Assembly (NCBI GenBank): GCA_014444615.1
Contig: PVXE01000004.1
Coordinates: forward strand, 2,768-66,767
Direction: 5' to 3'
From: Tagaea sp. CACIAM 22H2
Lineage (GTDB): Bacteria > Pseudomonadota > Alphaproteobacteria > CACIAM-22H2
Length of the DNA stretch: 64,000 nt
The notes under the pieces were generated by a model. It made no database searches. It was not told where the DNA came from and saw only the letters and a program-made list of their open reading frames with translations. The translations under genes were made by a program, and so were the position numbers. Shown here in pieces: positions 1-14,873 of this stretch (positions are counted from its first letter, which is position 1; each line of letters begins with the position of its first letter).

Positions 1-2357
1 TCTGCGGCGGTATCTATGGCAAGACCAAGATCACCAAGCGCGGCAGTCCACTTATTCTGCCACTCCGCCAACGCGTTCGTCGCCGCCTCAAAGTTTCGCT
101 GTCGATGCGCAACGAGCTTGCCAGCTTCCACAATATCCTTTTCAAGCTGGGACTTCCTGTCGGCTTCGGCCTCATGAAGCCGCAGCTCTTCCGCCACTCG
201 CTCGACAACGATAGGCAGGCCGTCCAATTCCAGTGCACTCACATCGGCACCCAATGCAGCCAGCTCATTAATCAACTGCTGCCTTGCCAACTGCTCTTCA
301 CCACGAGCAGCCTCCAACACACTGTCGGCTTCATCCCGCGCTTCAATGGCCTCGAGCACCCCGTCGCGGCCTTCTAGCCATTCCAGCATTGTCTCAGGCG
401 CTTCCGGCTCAAACGGTGCCCCAGTCCATAGCGCAGTCCAATCGGCTTTCAGTTGCTTGCCTTCCTCCACCAGTCTCTTCTCGTTGTCCTGCACCTGACC
501 AAGAAGCGTTTCTCGCTCATCGACCTTTCGCTTGATCTCGGCGATGCGGCCGGCAGCTTCGGCATGGTCGAAGCGTCGGTCGGCCAGTTCGTCGGCCCTG
601 ACGACGGCAGGCTCGAAGGCACCTGCTAGATCCTCGATCTCGTGCTTGTACTGTACGGCTTGATCCGGCGGGATCGGCTGCCCCTTGATGTGCTTGAGCT
701 TTACCAGCTGCCACACAACGTCGCGGCGATCACGCGTGTCCTTCAGTTCTTCGGCGCTAACCACCAGCTCATCGCGCATCGCTCGCTCAAGGGCGGCAGC
801 GGCACCGTCCAGCTCCTGCTGAACGGAAGCAACCTGCTGCTGCGTTTCAGTCAGCCTCCGCCGCCAGTCATCCTGCCTTTCACGCTGCGCCTGCACCTTG
901 ACCCGCGCAGGTATATTCATGCCGGTCAGCGCCCCTTCATCGCCAACACTGGGTTCAAGTGAACTAAGCCGCCGGGCGACCCGGCTCCTCGCGCTCTTTA
1001 ACGCCTCTGCCGCAGCGCGCACCCGACCGGCGATGTCACCCTGTTCGCGCACACTCTTCAGTACGACGGTCATCCGTGACGCGTCACCCGGATCACCGGC
1101 CTTGGCAAGCTCATCCTTCAGTCCGGCGTGATCTTCCTTCGCTTCCTCCAATTGCCGTTCCTTGCCGGAAACATCGCCCTCCAACTCACCTTTCTGAATG
1201 AGCAGAGATCGCACGACACTAACCTTTGGCCGCGACGGAATGCGCCCGATTAGCGCGTTTGTGTCGCCATCCCGCCAGTCGAGTTCTGCGGCATCATCTT
1301 TCAACTTGCTTTGCGCAGCTTGAAGCTCAGCCTCACGTTTTGGCAGATCAGCCTTTTCAGCGCGAATCTCGATACGCCGTTCGCAGACTTGGCGAACATC
1401 CGCCGCGCGCTCGATAATCGTCGCGTCATAAGTCAGATTTTCCCGCACTTCTTCGGCGCGCCGAAGCTGTTCCCTCAATGTGCCGATACGCGTGGCCACC
1501 TCAGCATCCTTGCGCTCGGACTCGGCGACAAGCCCGGCCGCGTTCTCGGGCAGAGCGATCACGGCACCGAGCTCACCCAAAAGCATGTCTAGCTCTTGCT
1601 TTCGGCACACATCCCGAAACACCCGCCGAATCCGGCTCAGCCGGTTCCGATTAACTGTCGCTTCGCCGATAGCCTTGTCGATATTGCGATAGGCCTCTTC
1701 AGCATCTTCGTTCGTTTTCTTCAACTCGCTCCACTTTGCGGCGCTGAGCGTCTGCTCACGCAGTTCCCGCTGTGCGACCTCAAGCTTATCTTCGGCAACC
1801 GAGAACCTCCGGTGCTTCGCCCGCCGCCCCGGACTCCACAAGCCATCCGCCTCGGTGGACAGTTGGGTCAACCGCTCCCGCAACCCCCCGATACCGGCAC
1901 CCGCTGAGAACAGCACCTGGCCAACGTCGTCCTTGGCATCCAGGATTTCCCGGCCACCGGCCTCTAGGCGCGTATGGTCAAGGCTGAACATGCGCTCGAA
2001 GAACGCCCGGTCCGCGCCGGCAAGGTAGGGGCGAAGTATCGCCTCCCCTCCGGGAACCGACAAACCTTCCGGTCCCAGCAGCGTGTCCTTGTTACCTTTT
2101 CTCCGCAGCACCTCCAGCACATCGCCGTTGTTCTCCAGAACGGCGCCGATCCTCATGCTGCCGTAATCGTGCAAAAAGCCGTATGGCGTTTGCCCGTAGA
2201 TGCCAAACAAAAGATCCGCGATGGCTGACAGCGCCGTAGACTTACCGGCCTCATTCCGGCCGAAGATGATGTGGAAGTCCGACGTGTCGGCAGGCAACTC
2301 GAGCGCCCGCTCGGTGAAGTGGCCATAGCGCAGCAGATCGAGGCGTCGTATCCGCAT
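1..2357 (-). CDS. SbcC/YhaN-like P-loop ATPase (DNA-repair exonuclease ATPase subunit), 5-prime part only; gene runs off the left window edge
   Basis: Reverse-strand reading from ATG at 2357 stays open to position 1 (not in the ORF track because no in-window stop). N-terminus MRIRRLDLLRYGHFTERALELP...FHIIFGRNEAGKSTALSAIADLLFG carries a Walker A (GRNEAGKST) followed by a long coiled-coil-like, E/R/A/L-rich region typical of SbcC/Rad50/YhaN ATPases. Start overlaps the upstream nuclease stop by 4 bp (ATGA). Confidence 0.6.
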   Translation of the reverse strand, partial: MRIRRLDLLRYGHFTERALELPADTSDFHIIFGRNEAGKSTALSAIADLLFGIYGQTPYGFLHDYGSMRIGAVLENNGDVLEVLRRKGNKDTLLGPEGLSVPGGEAILRPYLAGADRAFFERMFSLDHTRLEAGGREILDAKDDVGQVLFSAGAGIGGLRERLTQLSTEADGLWSPGRRAKHRRFSVAEDKLEVAQRELREQTLSAAKWSELKKTNEDAEEAYRNIDKAIGEATVNRNRLSRIRRVFRDVCRKQELDMLLGELGAVIALPENAAGLVAESERKDAEVATRIGTLREQLRRAEEVRENLTYDATIIERAADVRQVCERRIEIRAEKADLPKREAELQAAQSKLKDDAAELDWRDGDTNALIGRIPSRPKVSVVRSLLIQKGELEGDVSGKERQLEEAKEDHAGLKDELAKAGDPGDASRMTVVLKSVREQGDIAGRVRAAAEALKSARSRVARRLSSLEPSVGDEGALTGMNIPARVKVQAQRERQDDWRRRLTETQQQVASVQQELDGAAAALERAMRDELVVSAEELKDTRDRRDVVWQLVKLKHIKGQPIPPDQAVQYKHEIEDLAGAFEPAVVRADELADRRFDHAEAAGRIAEIKRKVDERETLLGQVQDNEKRLVEEGKQLKADWTALWTGAPFEPEAPETMLEWLEGRDGVLEAIEARDEADSVLEAARGEEQLARQQLINELAALGADVSALELDGLPIVVERVAEELRLHEAEADRKSQLEKDIVEAGKLVAHRQRNFEAATNALAEWQNKWTAALGDLGLAIDTAA

Positions 2358-2359
2358 GC

Positions 2360-3631
2360 TCAATCCTCCTGTGCTGTAAGCCGTGCGGACAGATATGGCG
2401 AGACTTCACCGATCAGCGCGGCGTAATCGCCATCAACGGTAACCTTCAACACGCTATCGCCGATGTCGCCGCGAACCTCGTGGGGCAGCTGGCGCACGAG
2501 CTTGCCGATATCGTCCTTGATTCGCGCCAGTAGGTCTACGTCCCCCGTAGCATCCTGCAACAGGCGCTGTAGCTCACCGATCGCGTCTTCACGCTCGGCC
2601 AGCGTTTTTGCATCGACCTTAGGCTGGGTACGAGCGATCACCTTTTCCACCCATGCGACATCATCACCCAAGCGAAGGGCACCGGCACGGGCTTCGGCCA
2701 GCAGCCGGTCCTCGGAAGCAACAAGCTGACCATGAACAGCGGTCCGACCTTCCAAGACAATACGGCAGGCCAGAAGCCGCCCATCGGCTTCATCGGCAGC
2801 GACTTCCACGGCGGTGCGAATTCGATCGATCACCTCACCTAGGTTCTCGGCACTGTCCACTGGAACCGTCAGAACTGCCCACCGCACCACGTCACAGGGA
2901 ATCGTAGTCAGTTCGACGACGTCACGATTCTCGACGCTAACGAGGCATGCACCTTTGACACCGGTTTCGCGGGCATGGCGGCCCTGAAGATTGCCCGGAA
3001 AGACGACGTGGGGATCTTTGCGCAACACGCTCGCCTGATGGACGTGGCCCAAAGCCCAATAATCGTAGCCCTTGTTGATCAAGTCTTCGATGGCGCATGG
3101 AGCGTAGTTCTGGTGGCCCCCCATGCCGCCGAGACCCGTATGCAGCACACCGATGTTGAAGGCACCGGAAATGGGCGCTGGGTATTCGGGCACAAGATTG
3201 TCCGTAACGTCCCGCTGCCGGAAACTCTGCCCATGCAGCACGACCTGCAACTCGCGCAGTTCAAATGTCTGCGGCTTGCGTGTACCGAATACATGCACGT
3301 TATCGGGCAGTTCGAGCCGACGAGTTATCTGGCTTTCGGCATCATGGTTGCCGTGGAGTAGATAGACCGGGATACCCTCTTTGTTGAGTCGGCCCATCTG
3401 TGCAGCGAAGAACAACCCAGTCTTGTAGTCCCGCCAATCGCCGTCATATAGGTCCCCGGCGATAATGAGAAAATCGACCTTTTCCTCAATGGCCTGTCCG
3501 ACCAGCGTAACAAGCGCCTCGCGAGTCGCGGTCCGTACCCGCGCGGCAGCGTTACCTTCCTGGCTTGCAAGGCCCCGCAACGGGCTGTCGAGATGAATGT
3601 CGGCAGCATGGAGAAACCGAAAAGATGTCAT
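2360..3631 (-). CDS. SbcD/Mre11-family metallophosphoesterase nuclease (YhaO-like)
   Basis: 423-aa ORF with calcineurin-like phosphoesterase motifs in canonical order: FLHAADIHLD (motif I), IIAGDLYD (II), LLHGNHD (III), LGHVH (V). Paired with, and translationally coupled to, the downstream ATPase. Confidence 0.8.
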   Translation of the reverse strand: MTSFRFLHAADIHLDSPLRGLASQEGNAAARVRTATREALVTLVGQAIEEKVDFLIIAGDLYDGDWRDYKTGLFFAAQMGRLNKEGIPVYLLHGNHDAESQITRRLELPDNVHVFGTRKPQTFELRELQVVLHGQSFRQRDVTDNLVPEYPAPISGAFNIGVLHTGLGGMGGHQNYAPCAIEDLINKGYDYWALGHVHQASVLRKDPHVVFPGNLQGRHARETGVKGACLVSVENRDVVELTTIPCDVVRWAVLTVPVDSAENLGEVIDRIRTAVEVAADEADGRLLACRIVLEGRTAVHGQLVASEDRLLAEARAGALRLGDDVAWVEKVIARTQPKVDAKTLAEREDAIGELQRLLQDATGDVDLLARIKDDIGKLVRQLPHEVRGDIGDSVLKVTVDGDYAALIGEVSPYLSARLTAQED

Positions 3632-3639
3632 CGGGATAC

Positions 3640-4095
3640 ATCACCCTTTTGGCCGCTCATTGCCATCCCACAGACGATCCAATCTGCACGTTCAGGATCT
3701 AATTTCTTGGCCTATGAGATTCTGATTCTTGTATTTACAAAGCCATCCACGCGACAAAGCCTAAATCGATTGTCCGGCGAAAATTTTTTGAAATCAAGTT
3801 CTTGCTATCTTATACGACTCACTGTCCCGCCACTGACTTCCCAATTCGAGCATCTTCGCTGGTTTGGTAACTGGATCCCTCAAATAGCGTCCAACACCTG
3901 CATTACTGAGGCTGATGACCGTGGCGGTACAATCGACCAGCGGTTCTCGCTCACTTACATCAGCTGCAGCACGCCAAATTCCGTGTACTGATCGAGCGGG
4001 CTCGGTAGTTCTTAGTGGTATACACAAACACGACCAATAATAGTTAAGATCGCAAGGCTGTGAACTACGGCAGGGCGAGTTTCGTGATTTGAATC
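3640..4095. promoter_or_regulatory. AT-rich divergent intergenic/promoter region between the nuclease-ATPase operon and the Hhe-like gene
   Basis: About 450 bp visibly AT-rich compared with flanking coding DNA; no convincing ORF; lies between two divergently transcribed start codons (3631 minus, 4096 plus). Confidence 0.4.
3809..3827 (+). promoter_or_regulatory. T7-class (single-subunit RNAP) promoter-like motif, speculative
   Basis: cTTATACGACTCACTgtcc versus T7 consensus TAATACGACTCACTATAGGG: 13 of 14 contiguous identities in the recognition/specificity region but the +1 to +3 GGG is absent. About 270 bp upstream of the Hhe-like start, same strand. Confidence 0.15.
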
Positions 4096-7000
4096 TTGTC
4101 CAATTGCCTTGCCATTAACGATTCCCATAAACGCCTAGCGCAGTGCCCTCAAATGGATACGCCCCCATCTGCCACGCTCGATCGAATCCCCTCGTTGCTG
4201 GAGGAGGTTCGGCGGCGTCTTGTCGAGACCGGAACGCGAAACCGCCTCATTCATGTCAATCGCAAGGCCCTTAGGACCAATGCGTTAAACGTCGTGAATG
4301 AGCGATCAGATGACGTGTTTTCGATTCTACGAACCGAGGCACGCAGGATGCGATTCCGGGCTCTCGGCAAAGATCGGACGGAAGATGCGGATGGCCCGAT
4401 CCTAGCCGAGGAAACCGTCAACATCCAAATCGAAGCAAGACACCAGGACACGCTTCTCGATACACTTCTCGGTCCCGACGCCCTCCAGAAGCGCCTTCTC
4501 CGACTGGCAGACGAGGCGAAAGTCGCGGAGAATGAGCAAGGCGTAAATATCCTCTATCTCGCGCTCGGCTTCCTCACTTGGTACGAGGATGAGAAATCGA
4601 CGGTCGCGCGCGAAGCGCCGCTCATCCTCCTTCCGGTCGAGTTGGTGCGAAACGAGCGAGGATCAACGTTCGATATTCGCGCTCGCGACGACGATCTGTT
4701 CACGAACCTGCCACTGCAGGAACGACTAAAAGGCGATTTCGGGATACAGCTCCCGGAAATCGAAGAGAGCGACGCGTGGACGCCAGAAAGCTATTTCGAG
4801 CTTGTCGAGGATTGCATCGGCGAGAAGAAACGCTGGAAGATCGACCATGACGGAATCCAACTCGGATTCTTCTCGTTCGCCAAGTTGCTTATGCTCCGGG
4901 ATCTCGACCCCGCTAACTGGCCGGACGGCGCGCTGACCAAACTCGATATCGTCCGCCGGCTGTTGAAAGACGGCTTCGAGCAAGATGCGCCACTTTTCGG
5001 GCCGGAGGATCGGCTCGACGACAAGCTCGATCCCTGCGACATGCTACACGTCGTCGACGCCGACGCGTCGCAGACAAAAGTAATCGAAGAGGTGCGCAAA
5101 GGGCGCAATCTCGTCGTTCAAGGTCCGCCGGGAACGGGTAAGTCGCAGACCATCACGAACATCATCGCAGCTGCGGTCCACGATGGAAAATCGGTCCTGT
5201 TCATGGCCGAGAAAATGGCGGCGCTCGGGGTGGTCCACAACCGGCTCGTCAAGTCGGGGCTCCGGGACGTCTGCCTCGAGCTCCATTCGCGTAACGCCAA
5301 CAAGAAGCTCGTCCTGCAAGAACTGGCGCGAACGCTCAACGCGGCCGGATCGGTCGCTCAGTTGAACAACGATCCGACACAACTCCGCGAGCTCCGCGCC
5401 CAGCTCAACGAATGCGCCGAATTGCTCCATCGCGATGTGCCAGGTCGCGACTACACACCGTTCGAGGTGATTTCCCGGATTGTGAGCTTCATCGGAAAAG
5501 GCACAAGGCCGCCAACTCTGATACGCGAGGGGTTGGCGAGCCTGACGTCGGACGAAGTGGGGACTCTGGCAAAGACGATCCAAATTTACGTTGATCTGCT
5601 CGCCAAGTCCGGCCCTCGGCACGCACACCCGTTTGCCGGCGCGACCGCCGACGATATGCAGCCGACCGATCAACAGCGCCTCGCACTGGAACTGGATGCC
5701 GCCGCCGCCGCCTTCTCAAAATTCGACGCGACGCTCGCTCGGATCTTAGTGTCCGGTGGTTTGCCGCTGCCTTCGACCGTCGGCGACGCAGACCGTATTG
5801 CGGACCTTCTGGGGCGCCTCTCATCCTTGCCAGCGCGGCTAATGCCCTTGTGCGACGAACTCTTCGACAAGGCGGATGACAAACGCTTGCGCGAAGGGCT
5901 CGCCGCCGGTGCAGCTTGGCGTATGGCACGCGATGCAATCGAGAACATTTTCACCGATGCCGCTTGGACGCTTCCGGCGGCCGCGCTGCGGCCCTCGATC
6001 GCGAAAGGCACGTCCTCGTTCTTCGCTCGTGTGTTCGGCGGCTATCGCAGCGCGTGTGCCCAGCTAGCGAGCGTACTGCGGCAACCGCTTCCCAGGGCGT
6101 CGGGAGAGCGACTTCGACTTGTCGATCGCCTCCTCGAAGTCGAAAAACTGCGGACCGCACTGCGGGACGACGAAGACTATATTAAGACCTCGCTCGCCGA
6201 GCACTGGCGCGGCGAGCGCAGCGAATTCAGCGATCTCCACTTAGTCTTGAATTGGCTCACCGCGAACAAGAAAAGCGGTCTTGTGCTCACACGAGAGATG
6301 CTTACTGCGGTTCTGCGGCTTGCGACAGAATCGGCAAGCCATCGCGACGCGATCATGGCGGCCGCAAAGGACGTACGCGCCGCCGTCACAACGGTTCTCG
6401 ACCGTCTTGCCTTCGAACCGCCGATCGATGGCGATAGTTTCGACATTAAGCAAGTTGCCGCGCGTTTTACCTGCATGCGGCGCGAGCTCGCGCGCTATTC
6501 GGAGTGGACGGCCTTGCGCGGAGCGGTACGCCGCCTCGAACAATCCGAGCTTGGTACGCTCGTCGCGGCGATCGACGCGGGGAAGATCGCGCCTGACGAA
6601 GCCTCTGACGAGTTCCTCTATGCGACCGCTGAGGCGCGTTGGCGCGAAATCCGCAACACGATTCCGGCGTTGGCCGCTCTGCGAGAGACCGATCGCCACG
6701 GACTCGTCGCGCGCTTTCAGACTGCCGAACGCGATCGGATCGCCAGCGTCCAAAAGTTGATTCAGGCGAAGCATCTCGAGCAACTCCCGAGGGGTGCGGC
6801 GGGTGAGATGGCCGTCATCCGAGGCGAAATCGCTAAGAAGCGCTCGCATAAGCCAATCCGTAAGCTCTTCGAAGCGGCCGGTTCGATGGTTCGTCGCATC
6901 AAACCAGTCCTACTGATGAGCCCAATCTCGATTGCTCAATTCCTTCCGCCACAAAGGATCAATTTCGACCTACTCGTGATCGATGAGGCCAGTCAGGTCC

Positions 7001-8847
7001 GCCCAGAGGACGCGCTTGGTGCGGTCGCACGCGCCGCGCAGATCGTCGTCGTCGGCGACCAAAAGCAATTGCCGCCAACAAGCTTCTTTGACCGTCTCAC
7101 GGATGATGCGCCGGATGACGGATCAAGCGAGGAAGAAGAAAATGAGGCCCCCCAAGCGGCGAAAGCGACTGAGATGGAAAGCATCCTGACGCTCTGTGAA
7201 GCGCGGGGGCTCGGATCGCGAATGCTCGAGTGGCATTATCGATCGAGGGATCCTTCACTTATCAGCATCTCGAATGTCGAGTTCTACGAAAATCGTCTTG
7301 TCCTGCCACCCTCGCCGCTCCAGCTCGACAGAAACTATGGGCTTTCTTTCAGACGCGTTCCGGGCGCCTACAGCTCGAAGAGTCGCGGCGGTGGACGACC
7401 TGGGACCAATCGGATCGAAGCCGAGGAGATCACCAAGATGATCGCCGCGCATGCGCGGGACTGGCCAGAGCTTTCGCTTGGCGTTGTGGCTTTCTCGAAG
7501 GCGCAAAGCGACATGCTGAATGAGGCGATCGAAGTCGCGCGCCGCAAGGACGCCGTGCTGGACAGCTTCATTCGAGCGAGCACGGCTGAGGAATTCTTTG
7601 TCAAAAACATCGAAAACGTCCAGGGCGATGAGCGCGATGTGATCCTGATAAGCATCGGCTACGGACCCCACGAGCCCAACGGCCGCCTCGCCTCGATGCA
7701 TTTCGGACCGGTGAACGGCGAGGGTGGCGAGCGGCGACTGAATGTCCTATTCAGCAGGGCCCGTGTGCGGTGCATTGCAGTCGCATCGTTCGATCCGTCA
7801 GAAATTGACCCAAGTCGCGCGTCCCGCAACGGTCCGCGTGTACTCAAAAGGTTTCTCGACTTCGCCATCAGCGGGCACCTCGACGAGCGTATCGCAACGG
7901 GCGATGCTGCCGAAAGCCCATTCGAGGACGATGTTGCAGACGTAATCGTATCGCTCGGCTACTGCGCCGATGCTCAGGTTGGCAGCGCCGGCTTCAGGAT
8001 CGATATCGGCGCGCGCCATCCCGATCGGCCGGGGCAATACATCCTGGCCGTCGAATGCGACGGCGCGACATGGCACGGCGCGCTATGGGCGCGCGAACGC
8101 GATCGTCTACGTCAGGATGTTCTCGAGAATCTCGGGTGGCGCTTCCACCGCATCTGGAGCACCGATTGGTTCCATCGTCGCGATCAGGAAATTGCCCGAT
8201 TGCGCGCGGCGCTCGAATCCGCCAACGCCGAAGGCAAGAAGGGCACGTATGTCCGCGGCGCCAACGACCGGACGGATGTATCGATTGAGGATCAAGTTAC
8301 CGACGGCTCGAACGCATCAGAGGAATCTCCGGTGTCTGCTCTGCCACAGATCGAGGTTCCGGCTTATCGGCGCGCCGAAATCCCTGCACCCATCGGCGGT
8401 GAGCCACACGATGCGCCGATTGAAGTGCTAGCTGAGATGGCATTACGGATCATTGAGATAGAGGGGCCTATCCATACCGATGAGATTGCGCGGCGGGTGG
8501 CGGCTGGGTTTGGAAAGAGCAAGGCAGGAGGACGTATCCAGAAAGCCGCGACCGCGGCGCTCGACAAAGTAAGACGCAAGGGTGGAATCATCGCGTTTCA
8601 GGATTTTTGGATGACGCTATCCCAGCAAGCGTCACCGCCTGTGCGCAACCGTGCTGCCGAGTCCACGCCAACGACGAGAGCGATCCATATTTGTCCGCTG
8701 GAAATTCGCGCAGCTGCAGCCCTCATCTCAAGAGAGAGTGGGAATGTTCAAACGGACGAGATGATCCGATCAGTTGCACGTCTACTTGGATTTCAGCGAG
8801 TTGGCGCCGATCTCCAGGCCCAAATAAGTGACGCACTACAATCGTGA
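4096..8847 (+). CDS. Hhe-like defence protein: DUF4011 N-domain + Upf1/Dna2-like SF1 helicase (AAA_11/AAA_12) + Vsr/DUF559-like endonuclease + DUF3320 C-domain
   Basis: 1583 aa. Walker A VVQGPPGTGKSQT; motif II LLVIDEASQV; LEWHYRSRDPSLISISNVEFYENRL; NVQGDERDVILISIGYG; NVLFSRARVRCIAV (SF1 motifs in order, with the long insertion typical of AAA_11). Then GYCADAQVGSAGFRIDIGARHP...ILAVECDGATWHGALWARERDRLRQDVLENLGWRFHRIWSTDWF (DUF559/Vsr-fold endonuclease signature) and a C-terminal IRIIEIEGPIHTDEIARRV...IAFQDFWMT region resembling DUF3320. Alternative start at 4153 (MDTPPSATLDRIPSLLEEVRRRL). Confidence 0.8.
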   Translation: MSNCLAINDSHKRLAQCPQMDTPPSATLDRIPSLLEEVRRRLVETGTRNRLIHVNRKALRTNALNVVNERSDDVFSILRTEARRMRFRALGKDRTEDADGPILAEETVNIQIEARHQDTLLDTLLGPDALQKRLLRLADEAKVAENEQGVNILYLALGFLTWYEDEKSTVAREAPLILLPVELVRNERGSTFDIRARDDDLFTNLPLQERLKGDFGIQLPEIEESDAWTPESYFELVEDCIGEKKRWKIDHDGIQLGFFSFAKLLMLRDLDPANWPDGALTKLDIVRRLLKDGFEQDAPLFGPEDRLDDKLDPCDMLHVVDADASQTKVIEEVRKGRNLVVQGPPGTGKSQTITNIIAAAVHDGKSVLFMAEKMAALGVVHNRLVKSGLRDVCLELHSRNANKKLVLQELARTLNAAGSVAQLNNDPTQLRELRAQLNECAELLHRDVPGRDYTPFEVISRIVSFIGKGTRPPTLIREGLASLTSDEVGTLAKTIQIYVDLLAKSGPRHAHPFAGATADDMQPTDQQRLALELDAAAAAFSKFDATLARILVSGGLPLPSTVGDADRIADLLGRLSSLPARLMPLCDELFDKADDKRLREGLAAGAAWRMARDAIENIFTDAAWTLPAAALRPSIAKGTSSFFARVFGGYRSACAQLASVLRQPLPRASGERLRLVDRLLEVEKLRTALRDDEDYIKTSLAEHWRGERSEFSDLHLVLNWLTANKKSGLVLTREMLTAVLRLATESASHRDAIMAAAKDVRAAVTTVLDRLAFEPPIDGDSFDIKQVAARFTCMRRELARYSEWTALRGAVRRLEQSELGTLVAAIDAGKIAPDEASDEFLYATAEARWREIRNTIPALAALRETDRHGLVARFQTAERDRIASVQKLIQAKHLEQLPRGAAGEMAVIRGEIAKKRSHKPIRKLFEAAGSMVRRIKPVLLMSPISIAQFLPPQRINFDLLVIDEASQVRPEDALGAVARAAQIVVVGDQKQLPPTSFFDRLTDDAPDDGSSEEEENEAPQAAKATEMESILTLCEARGLGSRMLEWHYRSRDPSLISISNVEFYENRLVLPPSPLQLDRNYGLSFRRVPGAYSSKSRGGGRPGTNRIEAEEITKMIAAHARDWPELSLGVVAFSKAQSDMLNEAIEVARRKDAVLDSFIRASTAEEFFVKNIENVQGDERDVILISIGYGPHEPNGRLASMHFGPVNGEGGERRLNVLFSRARVRCIAVASFDPSEIDPSRASRNGPRVLKRFLDFAISGHLDERIATGDAAESPFEDDVADVIVSLGYCADAQVGSAGFRIDIGARHPDRPGQYILAVECDGATWHGALWARERDRLRQDVLENLGWRFHRIWSTDWFHRRDQEIARLRAALESANAEGKKGTYVRGANDRTDVSIEDQVTDGSNASEESPVSALPQIEVPAYRRAEIPAPIGGEPHDAPIEVLAEMALRIIEIEGPIHTDEIARRVAAGFGKSKAGGRIQKAATAALDKVRRKGGIIAFQDFWMTLSQQASPPVRNRAAESTPTTRAIHICPLEIRAAAALISRESGNVQTDEMIRSVARLLGFQRVGADLQAQISDALQS

Positions 8848-8850
8848 TGG

Positions 8851-9300
8851 CATGCTACGAGCTTTGTAGACACGCGGGTTAGCCAATCGCATCTTGGCCT
8901 CGAACACCATCGGGCTCACGTGGCCGATCGTCGAGTGGCGTCGTCACGGATTGTAGAAACGCTCGATTTAGTCGAACACGTCGTCCCTTGCGTCGTCGCG
9001 CGTCCGATAGTCCTTGCGCCCGATGCGTTCGGTCTTGCACGACGAGAAGAAGCTCTCCATCACCGCGTTATCCCAGACATTGCCCGTCCGGCTCATTGAA
9101 CAGACGATGCCCTGATCAGCGAGCAATCGCTGGAACGCTTCGCTGCCGTACTGGTTGCCGCGATTGGAGTGATTCAGCACCAACCTCAGGCGTCCTCGTC
9201 GTCATATCGCCGTCATCGGCGCGTCGATCAGCCGACCACCCGGCACGAGAACAGGCCGAGGACCACGGCCACGTGCCTCCCATCAGTCCCCATGGGACAG
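8851..9300 (-). pseudogene. IS3-family transposase (OrfB, DDE integrase core C-terminus) remnant, frameshifted
   Basis: Minus-strand ORF 8968-9183 reads LNHSNRGNQYGSEAFQRLLADQGIVCSMSRTGNVWDNAVMESFFSSCKTERIGRKDY.TRDDARDDVFD; other frames continue with YIERFYNP and RRHSTIGHVSPMVFEAKMRLANP, the canonical IS3 OrfB C-terminus broken by at least two frameshifts/stops. No intact OrfA/OrfB upstream. Left boundary approximate. Confidence 0.65.
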
Positions 9301-9692
9301 TTTACAAGCGTGCATTCGGCTCATCGTCACTGTGAAAGAGAAGAAGATCAAACTCATGAAACAGACCTCACTGAACGATTCGGCCTAAGAGAAGGTTGAG
9401 TTTGTCATCTCCGAGTTCTCGGTGCGATTCCTCGATCGTTGAGCGAGGCGCGCCTGAAGCGGATGAATTGGACAAATTTGTCCTGCTGCTTGTTGAGCCT
9501 AAGCGGTCGAGAAATAATCATTTTTATCAGATCATCGTCGCAGCACGACAAAAACGTCCAAATTCACTTTCTATTCTTTGGTGGTTTTCAGCCTCTAATT
9601 TCGTTTTTTATCTTTTGACCATGGAGTTTGCTCGATGTTTTCATGATTAGAGGCGCCTGCATTCCGGCGCATAATTTGAACGAGGTCCCAAA

Positions 9693-9932
9693 ATGGAATC
9701 CGATAAAGATAAATCTGAAAAGGTTCCTATCCAGATATGGGTGAAATCAGAAGACAAAGCCTATCTCATGTATTTGAAGCAGAAGCTCCGCTTTAAGCGG
9801 CTAGACGAGCTGTTTAATATCTTGCTTGATGATTTGTTTGAAAGCGAAGGCCTTGAAAGGATTTGTGGTACGAGCAAGGACGATTTGAAGAAACGAAAAG
9901 ATTTTGAATTGAATGTGAAAATAAAAGTTTGA
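9693..9932 (+). CDS. small hypothetical protein, possible ribbon-helix-helix (CopG/MobC-like) DNA-binding fold, in a strongly AT-rich patch
   Basis: 79-aa ORF with a GAGG about 6 nt upstream of the ATG. KVPIQIWVKSEDKAYLMYLKQKL..LDELFNILLDDLF fits a beta-strand then two helices (RHH-like). Codon usage/GC clearly foreign to the rest of the window. Weak call. Confidence 0.35.
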   Translation: MESDKDKSEKVPIQIWVKSEDKAYLMYLKQKLRFKRLDELFNILLDDLFESEGLERICGTSKDDLKKRKDFELNVKIKV

Positions 9933-10364
9933 ATGACTGCCCATAGCCTAATCTTGAGAGTTTTTTGGTTTTTATTTTCCAACCTAATTCTGAATAATTT
10001 TCATTGGCGCGTCGCACACTTGTCGAGATTGCTGGCTAATTGACTGATCGGTAGATTGATTGCGGTGGTCAATCCCGTTTTAGCGACAGTAAGTCGTCGG
10101 CGATAAGCGCATCGATACTGCTGTCCATCGCTATTGCGTTTCTTACTCCAGTCCTTCAGCGATGCCGAACTTGGGTTTGGTATTTGCCATTGTCGCGCAC
10201 GCATCCTCCCACCGGGAAAGCTGGCACCCATCTCGACTTCGCGATTCCATCGTGCATGGCGACGCTAAAGATCCTGCGTCGTACCTCTCGATGCCACAGC
10301 GCATGCTCGCGGATTCGCCAGAAGGCACGATCGCTCTCTTTGCCGGCGCTTCTTCGGCCGCTCT

Positions 10365-11148: not shown

Positions 11149-11733
11149 AGCCTCGGCCTCAAGATTACTAGAAGCAGGATTGTGAAACGAGTCCGACACT
11201 GCGGACGGCGGGGCTCGCGCCCGCACCGGTTCTACGACGCCAATATGCATAGGCGCACTTAACATCCCGCGTCGCGGGCCGTCGAAACCCCGGTATCAGC
11301 CCCCTGCGCGGGCGTGTCGAACGGATGCGCGCGGACGCGGACGGGGTCGTCGCACCGGTAAGCCTGGCCGGCACGAAGACCCGGCACGCTCTTCCCGCTG
11401 ACGCCGGACAGGCGAAGCAGCGAAGGGCGAAACCGCACCCCGCACCGGTGCGGGAGATTTCCCAAAAGCCACCCAGCGAACCCCCTTGAGACCCAGCGGG
11501 ACCGTTGGGCGGGTGCCGCGCACCCGCACGCCATTTCCGAAAAAAAACGAGGCGGCGGCGGTTCGGGTCGGGTGGGGAAAAGGGGCGGAAGACCCGAACG
11601 GCGTCGACACGCGATTTTAAGTGCCGAGAGGTTAGCCTCCCGGGTGTTGGGTTCGGGAAACCCGTTCAGGGCGCAATAACGCATCCTGCACTTTTTTGGG
11701 GTGCACGATGCTTGCGAAAGGTCGATTTCGGCG

Positions 11734-12105
11734 ATGGCCAAACATGACCACGAACCCGACTGGGAGGAACTGAAACAGGGCTGGCTTGAGGAGGGTAACC
11801 ACGACGAATTGGGCCTGACCGGATCCGGACGCGGCGCGCGCCAATCCCCGTTCTATTTGCGTCTGTCGGTGCGTCCGGCCCGGCAGCTTGGCCAACTCGC
11901 CGACAAGCGGCCAGAGCCGCTGGACGCACCTGAGGTTCGAGTCGCCTTCTGCGCCCGACTTCCAGCCGAGACGGCGGTGGCGCAGCCGCGCCCGGCGCGC
12001 GAGTTGCGGTCTGTAGGTGCTGTAGGTGCGCGTGCGTGCATTCAATCGGCTTGCGGCCGCAGCATCTTCAGGTTCACCGGTAGCGCTGGGGCTGGCGAGG
12101 CATAA
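11734..12105 (+). CDS. hypothetical protein (123 aa), very uncertain
   Basis: Internal start MAKHDHEPDWEELKQGWLEEGNHDELGLTGSG...; no recognisable motif; high-GC region where spurious ORFs are common. Contains the tandem ctgtaggtg x2. Confidence 0.2.
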   Translation: MAKHDHEPDWEELKQGWLEEGNHDELGLTGSGRGARQSPFYLRLSVRPARQLGQLADKRPEPLDAPEVRVAFCARLPAETAVAQPRPARELRSVGAVGARACIQSACGRSIFRFTGSAGAGEA

Positions 12106-12192
12106 GGCCAGGGCGCTCGCCCGGGAAGGCGCGGAAGCGGTGCCCGATCGCCATCGCCTGGAATAGCCCTGGCGCGCGGCTGGGATGGCTAG

Positions 12193-12450
12193 GTGACGAT
12201 CCCAGCCCCGCAGGCGCGAAGGCGCAACGACGGCGTCGACGAGGCGGTCTGGATCGAACTCTCGGCCCGGCGGCGAATGGCCGAGTGCGCCGAGCTCGCG
12301 CGCATCTGGACGTCCGGTGCGCGCCCGGAAGCCGCGCTGTCGGTCGAGATCGGCGTGGCCGTCGGCATGGTCGCCGCCGCGCTCGACGCGCATGCCGAAA
12401 CTGCCGGAGCTCGGGTGCGGCGGGCCGCGAAAAGCCGCGAACGCGACTGA
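12193..12450 (+). CDS. hypothetical small protein (85 aa), very uncertain
   Basis: ORF MTIPAPQARRRNDGVDEAVWIELSARRRMAECAELARIW...; ends 12 bp before the direct-repeat array; no motif recognised. Confidence 0.15.
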   Translation: MTIPAPQARRRNDGVDEAVWIELSARRRMAECAELARIWTSGARPEAALSVEIGVAVGMVAAALDAHAETAGARVRRAAKSRERD

Positions 12451-12470
12451 TGCGGTAAGAAAGAGGGTTT

Positions 12471-12545
12471 GTCACCGATGTGAATCGGGTTGTCACCTTT
12501 GAATTCGCACGCAAATTCGATAGCGCGTGATTCGCGTTGTCACAG
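12471..12545. repeat. direct repeat copy A (75 bp) with three TTGTCAC motifs
   Basis: gtcaccgatgtgaatcgggttgtcacctttgaattcgcacgcaaattcgatagcgcgtgattcgcgttgtcacag; about 93 percent identical to copy B 152 bp downstream; followed 22 bp later by an inverted GTGACAAA. Confidence 0.8.
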
Positions 12546-12622
12546 GCTGGCGCCGGGTCGACCGCCGGCTGTGACAAATGCGAGGAAAGCCGCGCTTTTC
12601 GCACGCCCGAATTTCGGGTTCT

Positions 12623-12697
12623 GTCACCGATGTGAATCGGGTTGTCGTCATTGAATTCGCACGCAAATTCGATAGCGCATGAATCGCGTTGTCACAG
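12623..12697. repeat. direct repeat copy B (75 bp)
   Basis: gtcaccgatgtgaatcgggttgtcgtcattgaattcgcacgcaaattcgatagcgcatgaatcgcgttgtcacag; followed 22 bp later by GTGACAAA (12721-12728), as for copy A (12571-12578). Confidence 0.8.
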
Positions 12698-13029
12698 TGC
12701 GTTTTGATCGGGTCGCGCGGGTGACAAAGCGCGTATTTCGCGACCTCGGCGGTTTGAGCGGTGCCGGGCTCTTCTATTTTGTTAGTTTGGCGGGCTTGCC
12801 GGGCGATTTTTCGTAGTTCGCCCACATCTCAACCCGCTCGACAGTCATGAACCCAAGCTGAGACTGTGCGGTGGCGTTTTCGACATTCTGGCAATAAGCA
12901 TCACCGATGCGCCGTCCAAATTTTCGTAGTTTCATGTTTTCATAGTTTTTTCCGCCACCTGATCAGTGGTCTCGTGCACTCGACCTTGTTGTGAAGGTGC
13001 CCAAATCGCTGAACTAAAACACATTTAAA

Positions 13030-13057
13030 AGTGAAATTCCTAAAACCAGGAATTTCA
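13030..13057. promoter_or_regulatory. perfect 11-bp inverted repeat (candidate operator or recombinase/RDF binding site) in AT-rich leader upstream of the recombinase gene
   Basis: GTGAAATTCCT aaaacc AGGAATTTCAC; sits in a visibly AT-rich stretch (about 12840-13320) about 265 bp upstream of the recombinase ATG. Confidence 0.45.
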
Positions 13058-13320
13058 CGCGCAGCACGGCGATTTTAAGTCCCTCGGCTGCATGATTAAT
13101 CCATGACTAAGCGTGGAAACGAACTGCTGACTTCGCATCCTGTGGCGCTGCCGCAGGCCGAAGTTGCGGCGCGAGTCCGAAAAACCAGCAAAGATACCGC
13201 CGATCGGATCAATCCTATTGCCCAGAATCGGAAGGCCCGTCTTACCTTACACTCGTCTAATGCTCCCTCGGCTTTTGCGGCTGTGATTTTGGGCGAATTT
13301 CTGCTGAAGCGAATAAAGAG

Positions 13321-14838
13321 ATGATTAAGGCAGTCCTTTACATTCGATCTTCGAAAGATCGCGCGGATGCATCGCCTGCCGCACAGCGACGCGCTTTGCA
13401 GGAGCTTGCTCGACAGCGTCATTTCGCGATTGTTGGAGAATTTGTTGATACGGTCGTCTCCGGAAAGGATGACGACCGACCTGGCTTTCAATCTCTTCTT
13501 CGAGCGATGCGCTCCAAGGATCGAGGTTGGACCCATATTCTTGCTGTAGACACCGCGCGCATCGCTCGCCGCCGGTCGATTGCAATCATTTTTGAAGAAC
13601 AGGAGTGCAAGCGTCAGGGCGTGAGCGTCGTGTACAAGTCGTTGCCTGAAGCGGATCCCGCGATGGAGATGCTTTTAAAAAGCATCTTGCAGGCGATGGA
13701 CGAATGGCATTCGCTGACGTCCAGGGCGAAAGGCGTCGCCGGAATGGCCGAAAATGTTCGCCAAGGTTGGCGGGCGGGCGGCAGAGCGCCGAAAGGCTAC
13801 GTGCTAAAATATGTCAGCACTGGCGCCGTTCGAGATGGCGAACAAGTCATGAAGTCGGTCTTAACACCCGCCGACGATGCGCCTGCCGTCAGTCAATTCT
13901 TGAAGCACAGGTCGAGAGGCATCCGCCGCGGGCGAGCCCTTGCGCTCGCTGGATTGTCTTGGCCACCAACCACAGCAATCGAGGTTGAGCGCAACGCTCA
14001 ACTTTATGCTGGCCACACGACCTGGAATCGTACGGAAGAGCGTTTGAAGGACGGTTACGCAGGCGGCCGTAAATGGCGGCCAGAAGAAGAGTGGGTGACT
14101 AATCGGAACACTCACCCCGCACTAATTACCGATGCTGAAGCACGAGCTATCCTCGATGGATTGAACGCGCGACGCCGCAGCGGAGGCTACCCCGCCCGCC
14201 AGATCTATCTTTTCGGCGGCATGATGACTGCCCCATCGGGGGCGAGATGGTCCGGAGATAGTGGGTACTATCGGCTCGGAAAAACGTCCCGCATCTCCGC
14301 CAAAGCAGTGGAGCAAGCCGTAATGGGGCGGGTGATCGAAGACTTCAAATCCGAACGCATGGTTGATGCGATCATCAATTCGATCCGCCAGGCTTCCGTT
14401 ACCATCGATGTCGGGCAAGACACGTCGAAGATCGAGCGCAAACGTGTCGAGACAGATCGAAAGATCGCGCGACTTACCGAACTCGTCTCAGAGACGCGAA
14501 CACCTGCCCCTTTGCTTCGCCAAATTGAGACTTTGGAAGCCGAACGCGAAGTGATCCTATCGCAGATCGCGCAAGCGAAAGCCCCTAAGGGGCCATCGCT
14601 GGACCTGTCGCATCTCAGACCCAGCGATATTCGAGCAATGCTCGACGATCTTGCGACAGAGCTGACGACATCGACAGCGCCCGAAATGCGCGATCTCGTT
14701 CAGCAGGTGATTGAGAAAGTGGAGTTATGCGCCGAAAGCTTCGAGGCGACGATCCACTATCGACCGCTTCCACTCCCAGGCGAAAGCGGGGTACGGCTGG
14801 CGTCCCCACGGGGATTCGAACCCCGGTCTGCACCGTGA
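13321..14838 (+). CDS. large serine recombinase (resolvase/invertase N-domain + recombinase domain + C-terminal coiled coil)
   Basis: 505 aa; N-terminus MIKAVLYIRSSKD (catalytic Ser in Y-x-R-S-S context), ILAVDTARIARR (resolvase D-R-x-x-R motif); long C-terminal recombinase/coiled-coil region (IERKRVETDRKIARLTELVSETR..LLRQIETLEAERE). Last 41 nt overlap the tRNA-Glu gene on the opposite strand. Confidence 0.8.
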   Translation: MIKAVLYIRSSKDRADASPAAQRRALQELARQRHFAIVGEFVDTVVSGKDDDRPGFQSLLRAMRSKDRGWTHILAVDTARIARRRSIAIIFEEQECKRQGVSVVYKSLPEADPAMEMLLKSILQAMDEWHSLTSRAKGVAGMAENVRQGWRAGGRAPKGYVLKYVSTGAVRDGEQVMKSVLTPADDAPAVSQFLKHRSRGIRRGRALALAGLSWPPTTAIEVERNAQLYAGHTTWNRTEERLKDGYAGGRKWRPEEEWVTNRNTHPALITDAEARAILDGLNARRRSGGYPARQIYLFGGMMTAPSGARWSGDSGYYRLGKTSRISAKAVEQAVMGRVIEDFKSERMVDAIINSIRQASVTIDVGQDTSKIERKRVETDRKIARLTELVSETRTPAPLLRQIETLEAEREVILSQIAQAKAPKGPSLDLSHLRPSDIRAMLDDLATELTTSTAPEMRDLVQQVIEKVELCAESFEATIHYRPLPLPGESGVRLASPRGFEPRSAP

Positions 14839-14873
14839 GAGGGTGCCGTCCTGGGCCTCTAGACGATGGGGAC
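14798..14873 (-). tRNA. tRNA-Glu (anticodon CUC)
   Basis: Reverse complement GTCCCCATCGTCTAGAGGCCCAGGACGGCACCCTCTCACGGTGCAGACCGGGGTTCGAATCCCCGTGGGGACGCCA: 7-bp acceptor stem pairs perfectly, GTCTAGAGGCCCAGGAC D-arm as in bacterial tRNA-Glu, anticodon stem GCACC/GGTGC with loop CTCTCAC (anticodon CTC), T-arm CGGGG-TTCGAAT-CCCCG, encoded CCA. Confidence 0.85.

Follow-up and report, generated by a model that had tools for sequence, protein, structure and literature searches.

The 64,000-nucleotide stretch of Tagaea sp. CACIAM 22H2 analysed here (contig PVXE01000004.1; hereafter the window, whose coordinates are used throughout) contains, upstream of a large serine recombinase gene, an array of TTGTCAC-type repeats at 12455-12757. 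We found that this array does not code for protein, is conserved and structured, and forms a cis element within a MOBQ mobilisation module. Comparison with four other alphaproteobacterial loci (L127-L130) shows that it forms the 3' non-coding end of a conserved cassette, which consists of a MOBQ-type origin of transfer (oriT), a MobA/MobL relaxase gene and twin units of ~152 bp. Its most probable role is that of a DNA signal which acts in cis during transfer or strand replacement.

Linkage of the array to a relaxase gene

The comparison made use of full-length relaxase homologues that are 73-84% identical to P0122, a protein of 755 amino acids (aa) with a MobA/MobL domain (PF03389). Four such genes, P0122 included, could be placed on contigs L127-L130. 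On each of these contigs a two-unit array with a period of 152-154 begins ~15 bp past the relaxase stop codon, and the window array likewise starts ~15 bp past a stop, there that of a relaxase pseudogene. The genes on the far side of the array are a 154-aa gene and a DnaG-like primase gene in L127 and L128 (the primase gene ~2 kb past the array), a type I restriction-modification system in L129 and L130, and the serine recombinase in the window. Because the linkage to the relaxase stop holds whatever genes lie downstream, the array belongs with the relaxase and not with the recombinase.

Mean pairwise identity among the five loci was 0.71-0.88 over the last 230 nt of the relaxase gene, 0.72-0.83 over the two array cores, 0.53-0.69 over the loops and linker, and 0.35-0.46 past position 12740. 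By this measure the array cores are about as conserved as the relaxase coding sequence. When the window array was set against the four other loci, its cores were 76-94% identical, and its loops and flanks 16-88%.

The original prediction had described the array as non-protein-coding, and this was borne out. GC content at third codon positions (GC3) over 12460-12760 gave no frame-specific signal, and the variable columns among ten homologous units were distributed over the three codon phases as 13/17/11, with no 3-periodicity. The array period of 152 is indivisible by 3, which counts as further evidence for a non-coding element. The open reading frames (ORFs) that span the array on the minus strand are artefacts, as had been proposed. 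The array also proved to be locus-specific, as expected, which excludes dispersal in the manner of a miniature inverted-repeat transposable element (MITE) or a repetitive extragenic palindromic (REP) element: the window holds two copies of the repeat unit, both at the array locus, with no additional copies in its 64 kb, and in other genomes the unit was found only behind a relaxase gene. Searches of plasmid and phage collections with the array and the oriT block (blastn) returned no match, a motif-architecture pattern run across 185,579 species genomes gave no related match, and a literature search by motif string retrieved primers only.

Non-coding cis signals of mobilisable islands are poorly catalogued beyond a few model plasmids and integrative and conjugative elements (ICEs). 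The array represents a sequence family that is new, although its general kind, the cis-acting accessory DNA of a conjugative mobilisation module, is known, and its boundaries are defined by the oriT, the relaxase gene and the twin hairpin units. The architecture is unusual: twin 152-bp units, each with three direct heptamers and one inverted heptamer, that undergo concerted evolution.

The relaxase pseudogene and the predicted oriT

The relaxase pseudogene occupies 11734..12450 on the plus strand and had been called as two ORFs at 11701-12105 (ORF134) and 12193-12450 (ORF85). An exhaustive HMMER search matched ORF85 to the C-terminus of P0122 (residues 668-755; E = 2e-24), while the N-terminus is shared by P0122, ORF134 and P0121, the sole homologue of ORF134. 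ORF134 and ORF85 are thus the two ends of one 755-aa MobA/MobL relaxase. Alignment by tblastn placed residues 1-49 of P0122 at 11734-11880 (frame 1), residues 507-539 at 11908-12009 (frame 1), residues 540-591 at 12020-12163 (frame 2) and residues 637-755 at 12133-12447 (frame 1). The pseudogene has lost residues ~50-506, including the catalytic domain, and carries one frameshift and two in-frame stops.

Neither ORF gave a Pfam, PHROG or NCBIfam match, or a tblastn match to plasmids, and ORF134 and P0121 returned nothing when used as queries for related metagenome loci. The predicted structures of ORF85 (a two-helix hairpin) and ORF134 (disordered) were uninformative because both are pseudogene fragments. 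On the metagenomic P0121 contig, which was compared by gene layout only, a truncated relaxase, a 53-aa C-terminal fragment, a geneless gap of 600 bp, a 72-aa ORF and the recombinase are arranged as in the window. The deletion is therefore shared and is no assembly error.

A putative MOBQ-type oriT was located on the minus strand at 11660..11711, directly upstream of the relaxase start. It comprises an 11-bp inverted repeat (GCATCCTGCAC, 11681-11691, and GTGCACGATGC, 11701-11711, with N9 between) plus a nick-like core at 11668-11680, which reads GTTATTGCG|CCCT on the minus strand and AGGG|CGCAATAAC on the plus strand. This block is invariant in four loci (the window, L127, L128 and L129). Its layout is that of the IncQ oriT, in which an inverted repeat is followed ~8-9 nt on by TGCG|CCCT; the IncQ sequence CCAGTTTCTCGAAGAGAAACCGGTAAGTGCGCCCT (CCAGTTTCTCGAAGAGAAACCGG-TAAGTGCG|CCCT) was found at 100% identity in 80 IncQ plasmids. 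The position of the nick in the predicted oriT is one that we take to be the same as in RSF1010/R1162.

In the Tagaea island, the relaxase gene has thus been gutted, whereas the predicted oriT and the array have survived. Since this oriT is intact despite the dead relaxase, mobilisation of the island in trans may still be possible. The locus is reannotated accordingly: the called ORFs are parts of a relaxase pseudogene, and nothing links the array specially to the serine recombinase that targets tRNA-Glu.

Anatomy and evolution of the repeat units

A repeat search of the window identified two 81-nt direct repeats, which are the conserved cores A (12465..12545) and B (12617..12697) on the plus strand, with 91% identity and a spacing of 152. 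The self-match found by blastn extended over 76 nt with 93.4% identity (12470-12545 versus 12622-12697), in good agreement with the two 75-bp copies, ~93% alike, that had been reported before. The full repeat unit measures ~152 nt (12426-12577 and 12581-12730), and as features we delimit unit A at 12455..12606 and unit B at 12607..12757, both on the plus strand. Copies A and B agree at 74/81 positions of the core in the repeat search, or in 74/84 alignment columns, as compared to 43/79 in the flanks (Fisher p = 1.8e-6 on aligned columns).

Direct and inverted copies of one heptamer were correctly recognised from the outset as the backbone of the array. On the plus strand, TTGTCAC starts at 12469, 12490 and 12537 in unit A and at 12689 in unit B, while its minus-strand counterpart, GTGACAA, lies at 12571-12577 and 12721-12727. 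Of the 11 TGTCAC/GTGACA hexamers that the 64-kb window contains, 7 fall within 12470-12726, where the Poisson expectation per 260 bp is 0.045, and an extended 15-mer, GAWTCGSGTTGTCAC, is common to four sites. The proposal of three TTGTCAC motifs per copy holds for copy A, which has three exact ones, but not for copy B, whose sites are CTGTCAC (12621), the degenerate TTGTCGT (12642) and one exact plus-strand TTGTCAC (12689). The inverted spacing of N22 also had to be revised. In copy A the arrangement is TTGTCACAG-N23-CTGTGACAA (41 nt, 12537-12577), whose stem extends inward, and in copy B it is TTGTCAC-N25-GTGACAA (12689-12727). These inverted repeats are referred to below as hairpins A and B, without specification of the strand.

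To describe the unit in general terms, ten units from five loci (the window and L127-L130) were aligned. The conserved order is site 1 (TTGKCAC), GATGTGAAT, site 2 (GTGTCACC), TTGAATTCGCACGCAAATTCGATAGCGCG, site 3 (CGCGTTGKCAC), a variable spacer and site 4 (GTGMCAA). Each unit thus has a conserved leader of ~70 nt with two direct TTGTCAC-type heptamers, and a third heptamer that pairs with the inverted fourth to form a stem-loop; in unit A of the window a short GAAA..TTTTC hairpin comes in addition. B-type units have a shorter stem, and their loop, GCGTTTTGATC, is conserved in sequence.

The stem formed by sites 3 and 4 was paired in 94% of the alignment cells and its pairing was retained in 10/10 units, with a compensatory change from TTGTCAC/GTGACAA to TTGGCAC/GTGCCAA. 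At heptamer position 4 the pair was U-A in 7 units and G-C in 3, at the neighbouring position it was A-U in 6 and C-G in 2, and the covariation score of sites 3 and 4 was matched by 0/500 shuffles. The inner stems of A-type units are of three unrelated yet self-complementary sequences, namely GCTGGCG../..CGCCGGC in the window and L128, TCGCGC/GCGCGA in L129 and CTCAAGG../..CTTGAG in L130. When folded as DNA, hairpin A reached -15.7 kcal/mol on the plus strand and -13.2 kcal/mol on the minus strand, and 8/10 units folded better than shuffled sequences as single-stranded DNA of the plus strand (z -1.4 to -3.8). The T-to-G change was also seen at site 1, jointly with sites 3 and 4 in both units of L127 and in unit A of L130, and alone in unit B of L130; site 2 showed no T/G switch in any unit. 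Sites 1 and 4 are still able to pair in 9/10 units, and in some B units the fold of minimum free energy is the one with this pairing. Apart from the helices described here, none had support in the alignment.

Across the loci, the loops and 3' flanks are A- or B-specific, which means that the duplication is old. Identity between core A and core B was 0.97 in L127 and L128, 0.91 in the window and 0.76-0.77 in L129 and L130. The cores have therefore been homogenised within loci by concerted evolution, and this explains the contrast between core and flank in the window copies. It indicates gene conversion that did not reach beyond the 81-nt core. The two units are oriented alike in 5/5 loci, which would fit a strand-specific signal.

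A possible single-strand origin or priming signal

By analogy with known systems, the units may act in cis as a single-strand origin (sso) or as a priming signal of the single-strand initiation (ssi) type, a reading of the array's function that we favour tentatively. Nicking of the oriT by the relaxase would cause the nicked strand to be displaced or transferred, and the array would thereby become single-stranded. The stem-loops and the leader could then serve as the single-strand origin or priming signal, and synthesis of the complementary strand would begin there, by RNA polymerase or by a primase. As the island would leave as a nicked single strand, a second strand would be needed before the double-strand-specific serine recombinase could integrate it. 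We count the DnaG-like primase encoded near the array in L127 and L128 toward the priming reading. The surviving oriT and array could in addition permit mobilisation by a relaxase that is supplied in trans.

A comparable arrangement has been described for ICEBs1, where the orientation-specific stem-loop region sso1, ~200 bp in size, is intergenic and directly follows the relaxase gene nicK (PMC4595007). This sso1 aids stable acquisition of the element by recipients (PMC4595007). The window array resembles ICEBs1 sso1 and plasmid sso/ssi elements in being a non-coding region of ~200-260 bp, situated right after a relaxase gene, with stem-loops and a fixed orientation in the transfer module; an ICEBs1-type element, too, requires second-strand synthesis before integration. 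The window array differs from sso1 in its two tandem units built on a repeated heptamer. The relaxase class is also different, being MobA/MobL (MOBQ) in the window module and of the NicK type in ICEBs1. If the array is indeed an sso or priming signal, this would help to predict which relaxase-less islands can still move, and what was found for the sso of ICEBs1 would then hold for Gram-negative MOBQ elements as well.

A bolder version of this idea, which we consider unlikely, is that the twin modules represent an undescribed sso/primase-loading family of alphaproteobacterial MOBQ islands. They would have been kept functional together with the oriT after relaxase loss, so that "dead" islands stay trans-mobilisable, and the pairing of either site 1 or site 3 with site 4 would be a conformational switch.

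Several points argue against a single-strand origin. From the geometry of the oriT, the minus strand would be the one that is nicked and transferred and the array would be displaced last, whereas replication of ICEBs1 reaches sso1 early. For unit B of the window, folding did not surpass that of shuffled sequences (z = +0.4 and 0.0), and fold energies do not discriminate the acting strand: over all units, z ranged from -3.8 to +0.4 on the plus strand (mean ~-2.3) and from -3.4 to 0.0 on the minus strand (mean ~-2.0). The 70-nt leader is conserved in sequence, yet no covariation-supported helix was detected in it among the ten units, and such a helix-free leader would suit recognition by a protein as well as it would suit structure; its appearance is closer to that of a recognition sequence than to that of a fold. 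Finally, covariation of half-sites would also be expected from a dimeric protein that changes its specificity, and site 1 follows sites 3 and 4 in 3/4 cases.

Alternative readings of the array

The latter points lead to the main rival reading, which we regard as possible but doubtful. Here an accessory protein (relaxosome, regulatory or partition-like) would read the heptamers, with the array as its platform of duplex DNA. Candidates would be, for instance, the MqsA-like zinc-ribbon helix-turn-helix (HTH) protein or a 136-157-aa protein encoded divergently from the oriT, and the two units could support cooperative binding or looping. The eight heptamer sites in their fixed arrangement, the 15-mer common to four of them and the sequence-conserved leader without supported helices are all consistent with such a platform. 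The joint T-to-G switch of sites 1, 3 and 4 in both units of L127 and in unit A of L130 looks as if one protein had changed its specificity, but in unit B of L130 site 1 has G while sites 3 and 4 have T/A. Winged-helix initiators use TTGTCAC-type sites elsewhere (RepE of F, RepC with the GTGACAG core of IncQ iterons, and lambda-O-like origins).

As to candidates, the module comes with an MqsA-like gene in the window, L129, L130 and the P0121 contig. However, none of the candidate proteins changes along with the sites: L129 has T throughout and L130 is mixed, yet their MqsA-like proteins share 92% identity, and no MqsA-like Pfam match was recorded among the genes called in the L128 locus. L127, with just 110 bp upstream of the relaxase gene, is uninformative on this gene. 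The known MqsA and HigA operators are moreover palindromes of a different kind, which counts against these proteins as binders. The spacer between sites 3 and 4 is self-complementary in A units in spite of unrelated sequences. A protein dimer alone hardly accounts for this, since a dimer needs no such pairing. Relaxosome accessory sites near oriT, such as those of TraM and TraY in F-like plasmids, consist of many short direct and inverted sites with small ribbon-helix-helix (RHH) or HTH proteins as binders. Sites of the TraM/TraY type flank the oriT, whereas the window array is set off from its oriT by the whole relaxase gene and has a binder that is only hypothetical.

An element that acts at the RNA level, as part of the relaxase transcript, appears improbable. 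The array would then be a terminator lacking a U-tract, a 3'-end stabiliser or a source of small RNAs derived from the 3' untranslated region. Its position on the sense strand, 15 nt past the stop codon, agrees with this, as do the strength of hairpin A, the slightly better folding of the plus strand in the window and L128, and one helix (pair 68/84) with one-sided A-U to G-U changes that are tolerated on the plus strand only. Nevertheless, neither hairpin is followed by a U-tract on either strand (ATGCGAGG comes after hairpin A and AGCGCGTA after hairpin B), and a terminator scan yielded only a weak 7-bp stem at 12685-12701. Rfam covariance models applied to the array gave nothing at the gathering threshold and noise only at E <= 10. 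An RNA element would also leave the conservation of the leader and the repeated heptamers unexplained, and the array has been kept, with nearly all sites intact (B2 is degenerate), in two lineages with a dead relaxase, namely the window and, as judged by contig layout, P0121.

Even less probable is a relic or orphan iteron origin, or an incompatibility array (oriV or incC-like), for an initiator of the Rep_3, TrfA or RepC type that is absent from the window. The array shares with the F plasmid (RepE, Rep_3 family) an identical 8-mer, TGTGACAA/TTGTCACA, as well as direct repeats with an inverted pair and two clusters. F carries the ori2 iterons TGTGACAAATTGCCCT, the repE operator TGTGACAA-N9-TTGTCACA, which is an inverted pair of TGTGACAA, and the incC repeats TTTGTCACAG (PMC13028717). 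The window sequence CTGTGACAAAT (12569-12579) is identical to the core of the F ori2 iteron. However, the F iterons are 19-22 bp long with a period of ~22 bp and are associated with DnaA boxes, an AT-rich region and an adjacent repE, whereas the window array has irregular spacing (21, 47 and 33 bp), no initiator gene, and an inverted pair that faces inward over a 23-25-nt self-complementary or conserved spacer.

IncQ (RSF1010-type) plasmids likewise join a MOBQ relaxase of the MobA/MobL family, and an oriT made of an inverted repeat and TGCG|CCCT, with nearby oriV iterons that have a GTGACAG core (CGTGACAGTTATTGCAGGGG in IncQ1). The IncQ origin also uses hairpin ssi sites for the plasmid primase. 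IncQ has 3.5 regular 22-bp repeats bound by RepC, with ssiA and ssiB on opposite strands; the window array, in contrast, has two 152-bp units on the same strand, and no RepA, RepB' or RepC genes were detected.

The motif-architecture pattern produced 39 unrelated matches (11 genome, 24 metagenome and 4 viral loci), which do not share flanking proteins. Essentially all of them are phased TTGTCAC-type arrays with a 21-22-bp period that end in an inverted copy, the exception being L125, with contiguous 7-bp CTTGTCA heptads in both orientations. Where neighbours could be identified, the arrays lay in or beside initiator genes, that is inside lambda-O-like (HTH_36) genes next to DnaB, beside Rep_3, or beside the superfamily 3 (SF3)-helicase Rep of small gut plasmids. 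The lambda-O-type origins (L005, L018, L019, L029, L030 and L034) have 3-5 direct TTGTCACC followed by an inverted TTGTCAC..GTGACAA with a spacer of ~20 nt, but they are coding, sit inside the HTH_36 initiator gene beside DnaB and keep a strict 21-22-bp period, so that the heptamer alone is held in common. Being self-selected by the pattern, these matches show possible array types rather than homology, and we treat them as analogies and not as relatives of the window array. TTGTCAC-type arrays (L001-L011, L016-L039 and L123-L126) recur in Bacteroidota, Treponema, Methylotenera and phages, and several of the chromosomal arrays in Bacteroidota have no initiator nearby and occur several per genome.

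Sister islands of the same recombinase family do carry Rep_3 or TrfA with iterons. In the array itself, however, the 21-bp spacing exists only between sites 1 and 2, the other spacings being 47 and 32-34 bp, and the shared motif is just 7-15 nt long. The window has no initiator gene or relic thereof according to Pfam, phmmer and a small Rep_3 hidden Markov model (HMM), and a comparison of RepE, two Rep_3 proteins, TrfA and an O-like protein with its six-frame translation (phmmer, HMM) found nothing. No initiator is annotated in L127-L130 either. There is no DnaA box (TTATCCACA) at <=1 mismatch in 11500-13400 and no strong AT-rich unwinding element, the flanks being only moderately AT-rich. The vestigial plasmid-type origin (iteron oriV) that had been considered earlier thus fails on regular spacing, cognate initiator and DnaA boxes, while a single-strand origin is still a live option for the array.

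The two remaining ideas of the original prediction, an array of arm sites for the recombinase or a recombination directionality factor (RDF), and an operator of a HigA-like or MqsA-like antitoxin, are scarcely credible, even though in the window the serine recombinase gene follows the array at a distance of 0.6-0.85 kb. More than two TGTCAC/GTGACA hexamers per 300 bp were present in 0/86 recombinase-family loci, as compared to 7 in the window, and in L127-L129 the array occurs without this recombinase nearby; that it tracks the MobA/MobL relaxase contradicts the arm-site proposal. For large serine recombinases, minimal att sites suffice, and arm sites are not known to be required. Operators of toxin-antitoxin (TA) systems sit at the TA promoter, which is here >1.2 kb off, and an operator function is unlikely by position, given that the HigA-like and MqsA-like genes are at least 1.2 kb away, beyond the relaxase pseudogene and the oriT.

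Further candidates were tried and rejected. TTGTCA resembles a -35 hexamer, but there is no suitably spaced -10 element and a promoter scan was negative. A Pho box, a CRP site, a sigma-54 site, a resolvase res site, an integron attC site, a Tn7 end and omega-type heptads were dismissed on spacing, orientation or the absence of partner genes.

The recombinase and the rest of the island

The large serine recombinase (505 aa; 13321-14838) has Resolvase and Recombinase domains and is 100% identical to an NCBI entry from Tagaea sp., and its gene ends inside a tRNA-Glu(CTC) gene on the minus strand (14798-14873), to the right of which core genes follow. The set of 86 recombinase-family loci consisted of 6 contexts obtained by exact look-up and 80 IMG/VR loci. 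With a maximum of 2 hexamers per 300 bp across this set, the array was excluded as a feature of the recombinase family. The nearest relatives of the recombinase (59% identical), in L012 and L014, occupy the same tRNA-Glu site and have no TTGTCAC cluster but another short repeat, ATAGATACATATCGTATC. Other relatives are accompanied by Rep_3/TrfA initiators with iterons of their own (L041 and L042) or belong to prophages (L013 and the 80 IMG/VR loci). In L041 (1035-1094), Rep_3 is found with three copies of GGCGACARATTTAYGGT at 20-21 bp, and in L042 (1486-1711) TrfA is found with six copies of CTACTCAAACCAC at irregular spacing (42, 33, 22, 85 and 23 bp). The recombinase family thus serves phages, mobilisable islands and integrative replicons.

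The last ~40 nt of the recombinase gene (14798-14838 in the window, and likewise in L012, L014, L040, L041 and L042) are the 3' half of an opposite-strand tRNA-Glu gene. The attachment site is therefore embedded in the end of the recombinase gene itself. The C-terminal peptide ..ASPRGFEPR..P is conserved throughout the family.

A 73-aa ORF (ORF73; 13103-13324, plus strand) overlaps the recombinase start (ATGA) and has a 72-aa counterpart in the P0121 contig. A peptide weakly similar by eye to its C-terminus is found upstream of the recombinase in L012 and L014, where tblastn was not significant; ORF73 may be a partner or directionality factor of the recombinase. Just upstream of ORF73 and the recombinase, the segment 13031-13083 contains a perfect 12-bp inverted repeat, GTGAAATTCCTG-N4-CAGGAATTTCAC, and after it the box GCGATTTTAAGTCCC. 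This box recurs as GCGATTTTAAGTGCC (11611-11625) upstream of the oriT block, and L012 and L014 have related boxes ~415 bp ahead of their recombinase genes. Three copies of TTTCGTAGTT or TTTCATAGTT (12809-12818, 12922-12931 and 12937-12946), which may be operator or promoter elements, lie in the AT-richer DNA that separates the array from the recombinase operon.

On the other side of the module, the region 9400-10000 is sharply AT-rich (GC 0.38 versus ~0.62). It includes a 79-aa ORF (9693-9932) that looks RHH-like by eye, and a 79-aa gene is present at the same relative place in the P0121 contig. What looks by eye like a fragment of an integrase core of the insertion sequence (IS) type lies on the minus strand at ~8968-9183. 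The left part of the island (1-8847) encodes a long coiled-coil P-loop ATPase on the minus strand that runs off the start of the window, a 423-aa protein (2360-3631, minus strand) and a 1583-aa helicase-like protein (4096-8847), and it looks like defence-type cargo.

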